Shown here: positions 3,837-8,481 of the stretch, piece by piece
How the letters are laid out: each line of letters opens with the position of its first letter
How positions within the stretch are numbered: the first letter of the stretch is position 1
NCBI GenBank assembly: GCA_965242555.1
Contig: CBDESO010000008.1
Location: 547,577-611,576, forward strand
Reading direction: 5' to 3'
Length of the DNA: 64,000 nt
DNA from: Dehalococcoidia bacterium
GTDB taxonomy: Bacteria; Chloroflexota; Dehalococcoidia; Lucifugimonadales; JADFKI01
Position numbers and translations under genes: made by a program
Notes under the pieces: model-generated
Seen by the model: the letters and a program-made list of their open reading frames with translations, nothing else
What the model was told of the DNA's origin: nothing
Database searches by the model: none

Positions 3837-3919
3837 GCTCGATCGCCCGAAATCGCAGACATACACAAGAATACACACTTTCATACGCCCAAGCATACCC
3901 ACAATGGAGGCATCCGAAT

Positions 3920-5152
3920 ATGGCAAACGCAACATCCAACAATATATCGGCAGCGCCCGAAGAAGTAGGCTTTTCTTCCGAGCGCTTGCGGCGCGTCAAC
4001 GCCTGGATGGAGGGCTATATCGGCGGCGGCAAGCTCGCGGGCGCAATCACGATGCTCTCGCGCGGCGGCGAAACATTCCACTTCCAGCCATACGGCGTCC
4101 TGAACATTGACCACGGCGCGCCAATTCAACACGACACAATCTTTCGCATCTACTCCATGACCAAGCCCATAACCAGCGTGGCGACGATGATGCTCTACGA
4201 AGAGGGGCATTTCTCGCTGGACGACCCCGTGGGCAAATTCATACCCGCGCTCGCCCGAATGAAAGTCTATGACGGGCTGGGCGAAACCGGCATGCGGCTT
4301 GTAGAGCAGCAACGCCCCATCACCATACGCCACCTGCTCACGCACACCGCCGGGCTGAGCTACGGCTTTCACCAAGATTCCCCCGTTGAGGATATGTATC
4401 GCGCCGCCGACATAACCGACCCCGACAGCGATCTGGCGGAAATGGCGGACAAGCTGGGCAAGCTGCCGCTGATAAGCCAGCCCGGCGCCAAGTGGCGATA
4501 CAGCAACGCCACAGATGTACTCGGCTACCTGGTAGAGGTAGTCTCCGGCATGCCCTTTGACGAGTTCCTGCGCGACCGGATAATCGCGCCGCTTGGAATG
4601 AAAGACACCGCGTTCTACCTAACCGAAGACAAGCTTGACAGGCTGGCGAGCGTGTACGCGCCCGCGCAGAACGGCGGCGGCATCGCCGCGCTGGACAACT
4701 CGCTCATCAACCGCGTTCAGAGGCCGCACACCCTCTTTTCGGGCGGCGGCGGCCTTGTGTCAACCGCGTCCGACTACATGCGGTTCTGCCGCATGCTGCT
4801 CAACGGCGGCGTTCTTGACGGCGCGCGCCTGCTCGCCCCCAAGACCGTAGAGATGATGCGCTCCGATCACCTCGCCGACGACCTCAAGCCCTTCGCCGTC
4901 CGCAAAAGCACGTCGGGTGACACAAAGGGCTGCGGGTTCGGCTTAGGCTTTCGCGTGGTCACCGACATCGCCCAGCACGGCATAATCGGCTCAAACGGCA
5001 TCTACTCTTGGGGCGGCGCCGCCAGCACAGTCTTCTGGATAGACCCCGTCGAAGACCTAATCGCCATCCTGCTAACCCAATTCATGCCCAGCTCCTACTA
5101 CCCCCTCCGCCGCGAGTTCCAGGTAGCCACCTACCAGGCAATGGTAGAGTAG
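3920..5152 (+). CDS. Serine hydrolase, beta-lactamase/transpeptidase-like (class C / EstB-like)
   Basis: It has an SxxK motif (YSMTKPITS) and the text HLLTHTAGL. ATG 3920 has GGAGG upstream. The 5' part of listed ORF 3452.. is Arg/Pro-rich junk overlapping the previous gene. Confidence 0.85.
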   Translation: MANATSNNISAAPEEVGFSSERLRRVNAWMEGYIGGGKLAGAITMLSRGGETFHFQPYGVLNIDHGAPIQHDTIFRIYSMTKPITSVATMMLYEEGHFSLDDPVGKFIPALARMKVYDGLGETGMRLVEQQRPITIRHLLTHTAGLSYGFHQDSPVEDMYRAADITDPDSDLAEMADKLGKLPLISQPGAKWRYSNATDVLGYLVEVVSGMPFDEFLRDRIIAPLGMKDTAFYLTEDKLDRLASVYAPAQNGGGIAALDNSLINRVQRPHTLFSGGGGLVSTASDYMRFCRMLLNGGVLDGARLLAPKTVEMMRSDHLADDLKPFAVRKSTSGDTKGCGFGLGFRVVTDIAQHGIIGSNGIYSWGGAASTVFWIDPVEDLIAILLTQFMPSSYYPLRREFQVATYQAMVE

Positions 5153-5197
5153 CGCGACAGCCGCCGGCGCTCGCAAGCGTCGCGCGGCTACCCACAA

Positions 5198-5270
5198 GGC
5201 GTTTGGCGTAAAGCCAACTGCGGTTCACCGCCCCGTTTGCGTATTGCGCCAAACGCCGAGTCGCAGTTTT
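5198..5270 (+). terminator. Possible terminator or boundary hairpin after the hydrolase gene
   Basis: A perfect 11-bp inverted repeat, ggcgtttggcg (5198-5208) / cgccaaacgcc (5247-5257), is followed by gtttt. The loop is long (38 nt), so this is not a classic terminator. Confidence 0.3.
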
Positions 5271-5406
5271 GTATAGCAAATGTACAAAAGCGATTGTTAC
5301 GCTGAGCAAATGCACATTGTTTGAACCAATACTAGCCTCATCTGTGGGCTATAGTTGCATCTAGCGCTCAAAACTGATAGATATAGCATACGACGTTCCT
5401 ATTGGG

Positions 5407-6363
5407 ATGTTCTGCAAGTGGAGGATGCGCGCAGTGGCCACTACCCAACTGAATGTAACCTTTGAGGGGCCAGACACCGCCGATGGCGTGTCCATATCGG
5501 ACTTGAACAAAGTCCTGACTCGTGTCCAGAGAGCGATGCGCCTTATGGTGGAGCATCTGGCGGATGTTGAGTCGAAGACTGGACGTCCAAAAGGCTGGGT
5601 GCGTCGTGAGAGCGAACTTAAGATAAGTGGGACTTCACCCGGCTCTTTTAATGTGGGGTTGGAATTGGCGTCGCCATCACACAATAGCGCCTTGCTAGAG
5701 CAAAACTACGCTTTGGGAAGTGAGGCCATATCTCGCATACTCAATTGGCGCCCTGATCTGGATCAAAGCTACTCAGCGCAGCAAGAACGAGATATGGCTT
5801 ATATGTCACAGGAGTGGATTGATGAGCCATTGCTACCCGACAACGTTGCCGCTGAACTTCTGAACATTTATAAGGGGGTGTCACGAAACATCGGATCGGT
5901 GTCTTTAGGAGGGCGTCAAGACAAGCGGCGAGTAGTAATTCCACGCTCTAAGTCAGCGCGTACACTGAGAAAATCAACCCGTATTATCGATAGCGCGGTG
6001 ATATGGGGTTATCTGAGGTCGCTTGATTGGCCTAATAAGACAGGCCGTCTTGAGCGGATTATGGGCAAGCCTGTGCCTCTGAAATTCGCTGAGGGGTTGG
6101 ATGAGGATATGCGCCGCTTGGCTAATCGGTATGTGCAGATTCGGGGTAAGGGCAAACTTGACGAGGTCGCGGACGAATGGATAGACGTCAGTGTGAATAG
6201 TATCACTGGCACAAGAAACAAATTTGAGCCTTTCGACAGAAAGGAACTTCTAGATCGTCCAATTAAGCCATTCGATCCTGAATCGCTACATTCGTTGTCG
6301 CCCGACGATGATTTTGATGTAGATGAATTCATTCGAATCATCCGTGAAGGCCGTGACGTATGA
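5407..6363 (+). CDS. Hypothetical protein (no recognisable domain), upstream partner of the PIN gene
   Basis: A 318-codon ORF in an AT-richer island. Its stop TGA (6361-6363) overlaps the PIN start as ATGA. The start is uncertain: ATG 5407, ATG 5425 or GTG 5434. Confidence 0.55.
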   Translation: MFCKWRMRAVATTQLNVTFEGPDTADGVSISDLNKVLTRVQRAMRLMVEHLADVESKTGRPKGWVRRESELKISGTSPGSFNVGLELASPSHNSALLEQNYALGSEAISRILNWRPDLDQSYSAQQERDMAYMSQEWIDEPLLPDNVAAELLNIYKGVSRNIGSVSLGGRQDKRRVVIPRSKSARTLRKSTRIIDSAVIWGYLRSLDWPNKTGRLERIMGKPVPLKFAEGLDEDMRRLANRYVQIRGKGKLDEVADEWIDVSVNSITGTRNKFEPFDRKELLDRPIKPFDPESLHSLSPDDDFDVDEFIRIIREGRDV

Positions 6364-6782
6364 CATTGGAAAGATTTGAACGGGTTGTGGTGGATACAAG
6401 CGTGGTGTCTATCCTGTTTCGGGGAAGTAGCGACGATAGGCATGAATTCTATTGGCAAAGGCTTAAAGGAATTCAAACCACAATATCATTCCAGACACTG
6501 GAAGAGCTGTGGTTTGGAATATATTATGGCGGTTGGGGAAACAAAAGAACAACGGAACTAATTGACTTCATCAGCGACTTCGACGTAGTTTGGCCAGATG
6601 AAGAAGTATCCGATATTTCTGCCCGACTACGCAGCGATACCAGAAAGGCCGGACGCGAACTAAAACCCGCGGATGCTTGGATCGCCGCTACCGCAATAAG
6701 CCTAAAATGCCCATTGGCAACTGATAATGGAAACTTTGACGCGATAGCGGACAGATTAACACTAATAAAACAACCTAGATAA
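6360..6782 (+). CDS. PIN-domain ribonuclease (VapC-like toxin)
   Basis: The text VVVDTSVV, FQTLEELWFG, PADAWIAATA and LATDNGNFD supplies the four conserved acidic positions of PIN domains. Length is 140 aa. Confidence 0.8.
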   Translation: MTLERFERVVVDTSVVSILFRGSSDDRHEFYWQRLKGIQTTISFQTLEELWFGIYYGGWGNKRTTELIDFISDFDVVWPDEEVSDISARLRSDTRKAGRELKPADAWIAATAISLKCPLATDNGNFDAIADRLTLIKQPR

Positions 6783-6786
6783 CGCC

Positions 6787-7758
6787 ATGCCCCACTCCCA
6801 ACCCGCCCCCTGCTGCGCCGCCGCGCGCCCACACAGCGCCTCTCAGCCGACGGCCCCCACCGCCGCCGCCACGCGCTCGCCGGCCACCACCGACGGCGCC
6901 ACCGACGGCATGCCCCTCCTCCCCGGCGGCGAGTTCCTGATGGGCGCGGACGACGCCACCGGATTTGCCGCGGATGGCGAGGGCCCTGTGCGCCCCGCGC
7001 GCCTGGCGCCGTTCTACATCGACGCCTGCGCCGTAACCAACGCGCAGTTCGACGCCTTCGCCCGCGCCGCCGGCTACAAGACTGAGGCGGAGCGGTTCGG
7101 ATGGTCATTCGTGTTCCATATGTTCATCAGGAGCAAGAAGGCGCGCCGCCTGGCGCAGCAAGCCGCCGCCGAGGCGCCGTGGTGGTGGGTGGTCAAGGGC
7201 GCGTACTGGCGCAGGCCGGAAGGCCCCGGATCCAACCTCAAGCGCCGCTGGAACCATCCCGCAACGCACATCTCTTGGAACGACGCTATGGCATACTGCG
7301 CTTGGGCGGGAAAGCGCCTGCCCACCGAGGCCGAGTGGGAGTACGCGGCGCGCGGCGGCCTGGTTCAAAAGCGCTACGCCTGGGGCGACGAACTCACCCC
7401 CGGCGGCGAGCATCTATGCAACATCTGGCAGGGCAAGTTCCCCGACAGCAACAGCGGCGAGGACGGCTACAAGGCGACCGCCCCCGTTGACGCCTACAAG
7501 CCCAACGGCTACGGGCTGTACAATATGGCGGGCAATGTGTGGGAGTGGACGAGCGACTGGTTCAGCGCCTCATACGCCGCCGCCGCGCCGCTAGTCAACC
7601 CTAAGGGCCCACCCGCCGGCGATTCCAAAGTCATACGCGGCGGCTCATACCTATGCCACGACTCCTACTGCAACCGCTACCGCGTGGCGGCGCGCACCGC
7701 CAACACCCCCGACAGCTCCACCGGCAACCTAGGCTTTCGCTGCGCCCGCGACGCCTGA
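6787..7758 (+). CDS. Formylglycine-generating enzyme (FGE/SUMF1 family)
   Basis: It contains LPGGEFLMG, HPATHISWNDAMAYCAWAGKRLPTEAEWEYAARGG, GNVWEWTSDWF and RGGSYLCHDSYCNRYRVAAR. Confidence 0.85.
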   Translation: MPHSQPAPCCAAARPHSASQPTAPTAAATRSPATTDGATDGMPLLPGGEFLMGADDATGFAADGEGPVRPARLAPFYIDACAVTNAQFDAFARAAGYKTEAERFGWSFVFHMFIRSKKARRLAQQAAAEAPWWWVVKGAYWRRPEGPGSNLKRRWNHPATHISWNDAMAYCAWAGKRLPTEAEWEYAARGGLVQKRYAWGDELTPGGEHLCNIWQGKFPDSNSGEDGYKATAPVDAYKPNGYGLYNMAGNVWEWTSDWFSASYAAAAPLVNPKGPPAGDSKVIRGGSYLCHDSYCNRYRVAARTANTPDSSTGNLGFRCARDA

Positions 7759-7893: not shown

Positions 7894-8481
7894 ATGATCA
7901 TCCTGTTTGTGATGTTCTTTCTTGTGTTCTTCGGACTAGCTTTCATTTTGGCGCAAGGGCTTTGCCTTGCATTTGCGCCTATCGCCGGCATAATTTGCGC
8001 TTTTACGGCCCGTCGCAAGCGTTTGTCCGTACTTCGGTATTCGCTTTTGGGCATGGCAAGCGCCGCGTGTTTCATAATGCCTTGGATATATTTGATGTGG
8101 CGGATGAAAGGTTCGTCAATATCCAATCGCTCGGCTGACAACTGGCATGCTGTCTTGCACGCCTCTTGGCTTCTCTTTTTAGGAGGAGTGGCTAGTGGAT
8201 ACTCGTTTATATCCGCTGATTCGCTTAATTTTCCTTTTGGAAAGCGCGATATTGTAGTTTGGTCCTATCTGCTCGTCTGCTTGAGCATATGGATAGGAAC
8301 TTTGCTATACTTCGTCTTGGACGGAGGGTTTTCGGGGGAAAAGCGATTGCTGGATCCTAGCGAATTAACTCATCGTTCCAGGATAGTCCCGTTTGTGGGC
8401 GCATTCGTTACTATGGTGATTCTTGTGGGTCCGACTGTTGTTGGCTTTATTGTTGACCCGCCGAGCGGCATTCCGCGTTAG
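7894..8481 (+). CDS. Hypothetical integral membrane protein
   Basis: 195 aa with several hydrophobic helices (IILFVMFFLVFFGLAFILA, WLLFLGGVASG, LLVCLSIWIGTLLYFVL). The gene is AT-richer. Confidence 0.5.
   Translation: MIILFVMFFLVFFGLAFILAQGLCLAFAPIAGIICAFTARRKRLSVLRYSLLGMASAACFIMPWIYLMWRMKGSSISNRSADNWHAVLHASWLLFLGGVASGYSFISADSLNFPFGKRDIVVWSYLLVCLSIWIGTLLYFVLDGGFSGEKRLLDPSELTHRSRIVPFVGAFVTMVILVGPTVVGFIVDPPSGIPR

Follow-up and report, generated by a model that had tools for sequence, protein, structure and literature searches.

A probable VapBC-like toxin-antitoxin cassette with an atypical, modular antitoxin at a variable slot of a Dehalococcoidia genome

Background

The 64,000-nucleotide stretch of a Dehalococcoidia genome analysed here (assembly GCA_965242555.1, contig CBDESO010000008.1, positions 547,577 to 611,576; its whole length is referred to as the window) contains, at positions 5153-6782, a low-GC island with two co-directional open reading frames (ORFs), one of 318 codons from its first ATG (5407-6363) and one of 140 codons (6360-6782). 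On the left lies a gene for a beta-lactamase-fold hydrolase, with its stop at 5152, and on the right an FGE-sulfatase gene that starts with the ATG at 6787. The second ORF encodes a VapC-type PIN-domain protein and the first a protein in which a first-pass annotation of the sequence had recognised no motif, and which it had put forward as a possible antitoxin of a new, large kind. The features of the island described below lie on the forward (+) strand, apart from an inverted repeat, for which no strand is given.

VapBC systems form the most abundant family of toxin-antitoxin systems, and their VapC-type PIN toxins are normally preceded by a VapB antitoxin of 70-100 amino acids, composed of a small DNA-binding domain and a disordered tail. 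In the present work, we compare the island with its relatives in other genomes, whose loci are cited by our own labels (L001 and so on), and combine this comparison with structure prediction. On these grounds the island is probably a horizontally exchanged, VapBC-like type II toxin-antitoxin cassette, the antitoxin of which would be atypical in having three parts: an N-terminal domain (N-domain), an OB fold and a VapB-like tail. A VapB-like tail carried on an OB fold with a swappable N-terminal module is not described in the literature that we searched.

Results and discussion

Composition and boundaries of the island

The GC content of the island is 49.3%, against a mean of 61.3% for the 3.41-Mb genome, which places it in the lowest 0.37% of the genome's 1630-bp intervals. 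The profile moves from 0.64-0.74 in the flanks to 0.44-0.53 in the island interior, and GC at third codon positions (GC3) is 0.51 in the upstream, antitoxin-like gene, 0.41 in the PIN gene and 0.87 in the FGE gene. The drop in GC between the hydrolase stop and the FGE start that had been noticed at first pass is thereby borne out. The right edge also lies where it had been placed: four nucleotides separate the PIN stop codon (6780-6782) from the FGE ATG at 6787 and, at this junction (6783-6789), the cassette abuts the host gene.

The PIN gene

The product of the downstream gene (6360-6782, 140 amino acids), already read as a PIN domain from its sequence, matches PF01850 with an E-value of 7.4e-16 and a score of 59.3 bits (cut-off 23.6). 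Among proteins of solved structure it is closest to VapC-5 of M. tuberculosis (3DBO), VapC of H. influenzae (6NKL) and FitB of Neisseria (2H1C). In an alignment of 73 intact PINs of the subfamily D12, E48 and D105 are essentially invariant, and all three are present in the window. The C-terminal motif of the subfamily, PLA[SA][HD]D[RG]DF, reads ATDNGNF in the window and in L001, such that the aspartates kept at position 123 in 67 of 73 copies and at position 125 in 69 of 72 are both replaced by asparagine. This double state (N123/N125), which is flanked by D122 and D127, is shared by just two of 72 copies, the window's and that of L001, a 99%-identical relative. N125 is aligned with the aspartate preceding phenylalanine in VapC-5 (3DBO), a residue that we take to be the fourth catalytic acid, D135. 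Thus, the four acidic active-site residues that the first-pass annotation had counted in this protein are found in most of its relatives, and the window's own copy has three of them. Because two family-conserved aspartates are missing, this copy may be attenuated.

The upstream gene and its product

The upstream gene most likely starts at the GTG at 5434, running to 6363 and encoding 309 amino acids, rather than the 318 that the ATG at 5407 would give, because a Shine-Dalgarno-like GGAGG (5420-5424) lies 9 nt before the GTG, the homologues have their first residue at the corresponding position and this codon is the start in public gene calls. The 318-codon ORF was rightly called unrecognisable, there being no match to its product in Pfam, NCBIfam, PADLOC, PHROGs or the PDB sequence profiles, and it is the length that needs correction, probably to 309 residues. 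The family is rare: 156 related clusters were found among 1.84 billion cluster representatives, a word-indexed search returned 40 relatives and a broadened profile 68. Their alignment reveals a conserved C-terminal unit of ~125 residues set on variable N-termini, and G192, L194, W199, G238, G240, W249, P266, F267, D295, D297, F299, R301 and R307 are invariant.

An AlphaFold2 (AF2) model of the protein, built on the 40-sequence alignment, consists of a folded alpha/beta region (residues 1-170), a five-stranded barrel (182-259) and a tail of low confidence. The N-domain, which we term type A (residues 1-176; 5434-5961), is accessory and exchangeable, being absent or replaced in relatives, and is without a known fold. 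Modelled alone it attains a predicted local distance difference test score (pLDDT) of 83 and a predicted template modelling score (pTM) of 0.80; comparison by fold with the PDB gave no credible neighbour, and its only structural neighbours are two uncharacterised phage proteins in BFVD (E 3-4e-4, TMq 0.50-0.58).

The conserved core of the family is a predicted OB-fold domain (residues 182-259; 5977-6210). In the AF2 model, strands at 182-198, 203-207 and 214-218 are followed by a helix at 223-228 and by strands at 233-243 and 248-259, with block-mean pLDDT values of 80-90 across residues 181-260. This predicted structure has the topology of an OB fold, a barrel of five strands with a helix inserted between the third and the fourth, and the top matches of the core in a Foldseek search of the PDB are all OB folds: RPA14/RPA32, SSB, IF1, PriB and the N-domains of class IIb aminoacyl-tRNA synthetases (aaRS). 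The likeness to these domains, which bind single-stranded DNA (ssDNA) or RNA, lies in the predicted barrel; the window's protein differs from them in that sequence similarity is not detectable and in that its predicted OB fold is followed by a tail of toxin-binding type, within an operon like those of toxin-antitoxin systems.

The tail (residues 260-309; 6211-6360) is predicted to be disordered, with pLDDT below 50 for residues 272-292, and ends in a helix, FDVDEFIRIIREGRDV, predicted for residues 296-304; together they form a putative PIN-neutralising element. The helix has the pattern FDVDEF.R..REGR, in which D295, D297, F299, R301 and R307 are the invariant positions, and it reads F-x-R301-x-x-R304-E-G-R307-D. 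Inside the REGR codons lies a GAAGG, 9 nt before the PIN ATG, and this region (6346-6363) closes with the ATGA (6360-6363) in which the upstream TGA and the PIN ATG overlap, just as had been noted at first pass.

Pairing, co-divergence and decay

The pairing of the two genes is conserved across unrelated contexts and phyla. A PIN of the same subfamily (44-66% identity) lies downstream on the same strand, starting at -13 to +76 nt, of 78 of the 92 core copies (87 loci). When the 301 genomes of the class were searched with a PIN profile, all 17 hits of at least 140 bits had an OB-core gene directly upstream, and among them no strong PIN without an upstream partner was found; the family as a whole is carried by 26 of the 301. 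Approached from the antitoxin side, a distant clade (298-305 amino acids, 21-28% identity) is also paired with an overlapping PIN. The distance matrices of core and PIN are correlated over 68 pairs (Mantel r 0.737), where the maximum of 999 permutations is 0.199. The co-occurrence that the first-pass annotation had asked for is therefore present, and no homologue with a known, unrelated function came to light.

Where the pairs decay, they do so on one side. Of the 87 PINs in pairs, about 12 are partial or are pseudogenes with internal stops, each behind an upstream gene that has stayed open. Loci without a PIN hold orphans or remnants: L079 and L086 retain a truncated tail and a 'LIVDTDIII' relic, and in L071 a bare core stands in front of hsdR. 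Decay of the PIN with retention of the upstream gene, together with orphan upstream genes, is typical of toxin-antitoxin loci and is what one would expect were the upstream gene the antidote. Two loci carry surplus upstream genes, with three tandem, diverged, full-length antitoxin-like genes before one PIN in L062 (5001-8812, a Marinacidobacterium metagenome-assembled genome) and two tandem core-only copies before one PIN in L007.

Modular architecture and an allelic series at one slot

A census of architectures was made over 101 copies. The type A N-domain of the window is present in 61 of these; 21 consist of the core only, 8 have DUF2442 at the N-terminus (PF10387, 67 bits; exemplified by the DUF2442+OB+tail protein of L065), 7 have a HEPN-like domain, here termed type B, and 4 have other arrangements, including an AbrB/MazE+OB+tail protein in L069 (PF04014, 27.4 bits). 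Type B has an invariant R144-N-x-x-x-H149, and 6 of 15 members give sub-threshold matches to HEPN_RiboL-PSP. We also considered whether type A might be a degenerate HEPN domain related to type B, and rejected this: H41 of type A is conserved and its arginine is not, no HEPN match was obtained, the hhalign probability is 0.3% and the model fold is alpha/beta. The ~220 N-terminal residues of the type B forms (L002, L034, L041 and L078; for example L002, 4001-5083) may constitute a second RNase-type domain fused to the PIN antitoxin.

At least 18 changes of architecture can be counted on a tree built from the core. The core of the window nests inside a clade of its own genus (support 100/98), 13 of the 22 genomes of which carry the gene, always directly upstream of the PIN and FGE genes. 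At this one slot the upstream gene takes four forms: the 309-residue type A protein (the window and L001), a 337-365-residue type B protein (L002, L034, L041 and L078), a 141-residue core-only protein (L005, L006 and L043), before which there are only 163 nt of upstream sequence, and a tandem pair of 141 and 142 residues (L007). In all occupied variants, 4-6 nt separate the PIN stop from the FGE start codon. In L096 the slot is empty and 110 nt separate the flanking genes (1386-1494), and in L101 (267-1454) the slot upstream of FGE holds a 395-residue P-loop NTPase of AAA_22/nSTAND1 type instead of the pair. As judged from these sequences, the slot is a variable hotspot, and one for conflict-type genes as L101 marks, because L096 is empty, L101 has an NTPase and the other variants differ from one another. 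The OB fold with its tail, which stands alone in the core-only forms, is a candidate for the minimal functional antitoxin.

Tails of the partners of sister PINs

Upstream of the weaker hits in this PIN clade, those of 77-130 bits, stand other proteins with a similar two-part tail. One is an AbrB/MazE antitoxin above the Pfam threshold (PF04014, 37.7 bits); two more, with sub-threshold matches, are RelB/Phd-like and of zinc-ribbon type, and there are also divergent N-domain+OB proteins. L132 has, directly upstream of a sister-clade PIN (1495-1857), a protein that joins a dCTP-deaminase-like domain (PF22769, 74 bits) to a VapB-like tail; it would be antitoxin-like with an enzymatic N-terminal domain. 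When aligned, the tails share an aromatic/acidic first segment and a terminal helix of the form D-[VIF]-[DE]-[EDA]-F-[ILM]-x-x-[IV]...R. The suggestion that the acidic C-terminus of the window's protein is a toxin-binding peptide gains support from this, as the tail is invariant within the family and recurs on an AbrB/MazE-type VapB and on the other partners. Published VapBC structures show the active site of VapC occupied by positively charged residues of the VapB antitoxin, with the metal ions displaced, and R...R motifs flanked by acids occur in ~45% of VapB tails (PMC5389673). A search for solved structures with a tail similar to the window's returned none.

Distribution, exchange and genomic context

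Members of the family occur in metagenome-assembled genomes of five phyla: Chloroflexota (Dehalococcoidia and Caldilineaceae), Actinomycetota, Acidobacteriota, Latescibacterota and Spirochaetota. The names of some records hint at sponge symbionts as hosts; the enrichment of restriction-modification and toxin-antitoxin genes in such communities is the subject of published work (for example PMC5649159 and PMC5099237). In 72 of 85 loci the module is poorer in GC than its flanks (mean -5.2 points), and in the low-GC Latescibacterota it is richer. Between the window and L001 the synonymous divergence of the FGE gene is 0.16 and the values within the island are 0.085, 0.044 and 0.021, from small counts. 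Because the island has diverged less at synonymous sites than the flanking FGE gene, these values suggest that the cassette has been exchanged between lineages after the window and L001 split. Horizontal acquisition, as proposed at first pass, is thus in keeping with the low GC content, the five phyla, the empty site in L096 and the many insertion sites. A recent acquisition in the window's genome was rejected for the locus as a whole, since the slot is filled in 13 of the genus's 22 genomes. In the same comparison with L001 the ratio of nonsynonymous to synonymous change (pN/pS) is 0.62 for the antitoxin N-domain, 0.51 for its core, 0.15 for the PIN, on very few changes (the two PINs differ by 1 amino acid in 140), and 0.14 for FGE.

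The immediate downstream neighbour found most often is hsdR of type I restriction-modification (R-M) systems, in 7-8 of 75 loci where ~0.05 would be expected by chance. In two of these genomes the 5' end of hsdR is duplicated, with direct repeats flanking the module: 88 nt at 90% identity and 1481 nt apart in L004 (3742-3829 and 5223-5310), and 64 nt at 95% and 1414 nt apart in L010 (4855-4918 and 6269-6332). These repeats suggest insertion or exchange by recombination at a conserved segment of hsdR. The module of L004 lies between HsdS/TIR and HsdR, in an operon that holds a TIR-domain gene, and that of L003 adjoins an Eco57I-type R-M gene. The other neighbours are mostly housekeeping genes, and ~90% of the loci have ordinary housekeeping contexts.

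One distant member, in L134 (2929-4839), is accompanied by a truncated PIN remnant (3882-4046, 'AVVDTDVLSF') and lies in a prophage-like head module, between a portal gene and a 224-residue ORF (by eye a prohead protease, with no Pfam match on record) that is followed by the major capsid gene. It has the look of a moron-type insertion.

A probable VapBC-like cassette and its proposed mechanism

We propose that the downstream gene encodes a VapC-type PIN ribonuclease and that the upstream 309-residue protein is its cognate inhibitor. The last ~50 residues of the latter would be disordered and end in an acidic, arginine-bearing helix, which, as in VapB tails, would wrap around the PIN and direct its arginines into the acidic active site. 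This tail would hang from the OB fold, the two together representing a minimal antitoxin, which sister genomes encode by itself as the 141-residue protein. Most likely the OB fold provides an oligomerisation and/or nucleic-acid-binding body, the part played by AbrB, RHH or Phd domains in ordinary VapBs, and the 176-residue N-domain would be an exchangeable accessory, its place being taken in relatives by a HEPN-like domain, DUF2442, AbrB/MazE or nothing. The two genes are coupled in translation through the ATGA, with the ribosome-binding site of the PIN inside the REGR codons. The earlier suggestion of a large antitoxin of a new kind is, to this extent, supported by the pairing, the co-divergence and the orphans with decayed PINs, with the refinement that the conserved unit is the OB fold and its tail.

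With the known VapBC systems (VapBC-5, 3DBO; H. influenzae, 6NKL; FitAB, 2H1C; C. crescentus VapBC1) the cassette shares a downstream PIN toxin, an antitoxin directly upstream with overlapping stop and start codons, an antitoxin C-terminus that is disordered, acidic and arginine-bearing (as predicted here), and a chromosomal, patchy and horizontally mobile distribution. It differs from them in the length of its antitoxin (309 residues as opposed to 70-100), which lacks an AbrB, RHH, Phd or HTH domain and has as its body a predicted OB fold with an extra domain of 176 residues, and in its PIN, which falls below the NCBIfam VapC cut-offs and is without the fourth acidic residue. By description only, it may also be likened to the Synechocystis pair sll0406 (PIN) and sll0405, which was predicted to be toxin and antitoxin by gene order only and in which the PIN is likewise preceded by an unannotated, non-canonical partner, a 'hypothetical' antitoxin (PMC4963859). 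For that pair the catalogue offers neither a fold nor an analysis of the tail nor experiments, and a comparison of shared words revealed no close look-alike.

Several observations weigh against a VapBC-like cassette. The PIN does not reach the NCBIfam cut-offs for VapC equivalogs (NF047863, 42.2 bits against 140; NF047959, 37.7 against 80), and asparagine at two conserved aspartate positions makes the toxicity of the window's own PIN doubtful. The OB-fold matches are consistent and weak, at E-values of 3e-3 to 3e-2 and template modelling (TM) scores of 0.45-0.64 normalised to the target, and they concern a model predicted from 40 sequences; no canonical DNA-binding domain (AbrB/MazE, RHH, Phd/YefM or HTH) is detected by Pfam or NCBIfam in the window's protein, and no convincing operator or promoter was identified at the window locus. 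We infer the binding of the tail to the PIN by analogy only. No member of the family is functionally annotated, the relatives found being named simply 'hypothetical protein', and the family is absent from PADLOC-DB v2, from plasmids and from curated phages, with IMG/VR contigs likewise giving no match; the best that the PIN achieves against PADLOC-DB v2 is a chance-level match to GajA (E 0.042).

Alternative explanations

One alternative, which agrees with a VapBC-like cassette as far as the parts go and differs from it in biological role and trigger, is anti-phage abortive infection, in which the N-domain and/or the OB fold would sense a phage protein or ssDNA or RNA and release or expose the tail, whereupon the PIN would stop translation. 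The frequency of hsdR downstream of the module speaks for it, as do the positions of L003 beside an Eco57I-type R-M gene and of L004 between HsdS/TIR and HsdR, the repeated change of N-terminal architecture, with different N-domains at the same slot within one genus, the AAA_22/nSTAND1-type NTPase that holds this slot in L101, the phage proteins that are the only structural neighbours of the N-domain and the distant member carried as cargo in a prophage head module. Against these stand the lack of a match to any PADLOC model, the housekeeping contexts of ~90% of the loci, the frequency of core-only forms (21 of 101), which makes a sensor domain dispensable, and the decay of many PINs; moreover, ordinary toxin-antitoxin genes are also commonly embedded in R-M loci. 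On balance we regard abortive infection as an unlikely role.

Antitoxins that act as sensors through fused domains are a general concept among toxin-antitoxin systems of the defence type. The present family resembles them in its extra, variable domains and in the R-M and defence neighbourhoods of some loci, and departs from them in having no PADLOC homology and in the abundance of forms without an N-domain. More speculatively, and in our estimation rather improbably, the antitoxin might be a modular plug-in sensor, in which the OB fold and tail act as a universal PIN clamp and the N-module sets its release, in a hitherto undescribed, R-M-associated abortive-infection or conflict system circulating among co-resident uncultured bacteria. 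If this were true, the allelic series at the one slot would record the ongoing switching of triggers.

The asparagines of the PIN lead to a different alternative: the window's cassette could be a domesticated or decaying remnant with a catalytically dead PIN, kept for the transcription or translation signals that it gives to FGE or because its antitoxin guards against related toxins that enter the cell (anti-addiction). The double change from aspartate to asparagine is confined to the window and L001, at positions that are 92-96% conserved; PIN decay is common in the family and orphan antitoxins exist; the occupied variants abut FGE by 4-6 nt, with the empty site having its own leader of 110 nt; and the pN/pS values of the antitoxin are elevated in comparison to that of FGE. 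Set against this, both ORFs are intact, the PIN is one residue away from that of L001 (with a pN/pS of 0.15 that is based on very few changes), all three of the strictly conserved acids are retained, and D122 and D127, on either side of the changed positions, might substitute for the missing aspartates. Furthermore, the active-site residues of VapC1 of C. crescentus naturally include an asparagine (PMC5389673). We consider a dead remnant possible, though improbable.

Least tenable is a two-subunit nuclease for RNA processing or DNA repair, in which the upstream protein would be a specificity or targeting subunit whose OB fold presents RNA or ssDNA to the PIN: OB folds do typically bind single-stranded nucleic acids, the top matches here include RPA, SSB, IF1 and tRNA-synthetase anticodon-binding domains, and pairing with co-divergence would also be expected of an obligate heterodimeric enzyme, but the patchy distribution (13 of 22 genomes of the genus, 26 of 301 of the class), foreign composition and many insertion sites are hallmarks of a selfish or accessory cassette, the decay is asymmetric, with PINs lost while the partner is kept, the tail is common to a canonical AbrB-type VapB antitoxin and the order of the genes and their coupling through ATGA are those of a typical antitoxin-toxin operon, such that we think this very improbable indeed.

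Returning to the VapBC-like cassette, the full-length, HEPN-like, bare 141-residue core and tandem forms at a single slot amount to a natural experiment on the role of each part of the antitoxin. The locus is also a record of a cassette exchanged among uncultured bacteria of five phyla, with recurrent insertion just before hsdR and a duplicated 5' end of hsdR in two genomes.

Leader, repeats and neighbouring genes

The leader, or intergenic region, runs from the hydrolase stop to the antitoxin start (5153-5433) and holds an inverted repeat, a direct repeat and a conserved box. L001 matches this region at 88% identity. The core-only variants (L005, L006, L007, L043 and L090) share its first ~105 nt, inverted repeat included, and the region has no counterpart in the 110-nt spacer of the empty site. 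A scan of the island for sigma-70 promoters and terminators gave none that scored above background.

The inverted repeat, GGCGTTTGGCGTAA / TTGCGCCAAACGCC (5198-5257), has 11-nt perfect arms (5198-5208/5247-5257), which can be extended to 14 nt at 93% (5198-5211/5244-5257) around a spacer of 32 nt. The 11-bp repeat reported at first pass is therefore real, and it is its reading as the edge of the island that does not stand. The pattern TTGGCGYAA-N15-45-TTGCGCCAA was recovered from loci of this slot, of type A, type B and core-only form alike, and from no other locus; nor was a comparable inverted repeat found upstream of the module at eight unrelated insertion sites. The repeat was accordingly rejected as a cassette boundary or att-like site, being confined to the genus-specific slot in all of its variants and absent wherever else the module has inserted. 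From its distribution it is a local backbone element, or a locus-specific regulatory or terminator-like structure, and not a cassette end; changes in the arms among relatives provide covariation neither for nor against an RNA structure.

A direct repeat, AGCAAATG(T/C)ACA (5275-5316), is present in two copies 30 bp apart and is a candidate operator-like element; it is kept in L001 and absent from the core-only variants, which lack that stretch of ~110 nt. Just upstream of the start codon lies the box CAAAACTGATAGATAT (5369-5384), which is common to the long and short variants and is a candidate promoter or leader element. In L005 and L007 this box comes directly after the inverted repeat.

On the other side of the island, given the tight junction when the slot is occupied and the 110-nt leader when it is empty, expression of FGE may depend on read-through from the cassette. 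Directly after FGE lies a second low-GC gene (7894-8481; 48.5% GC, with a strongly negative AT skew), encoding a polytopic membrane protein of 195 amino acids without a Pfam match. Relatives carry a diverged copy of this gene (56% identity in L090) or lack it, which gives it the look of a further variable insertion next to these host genes.

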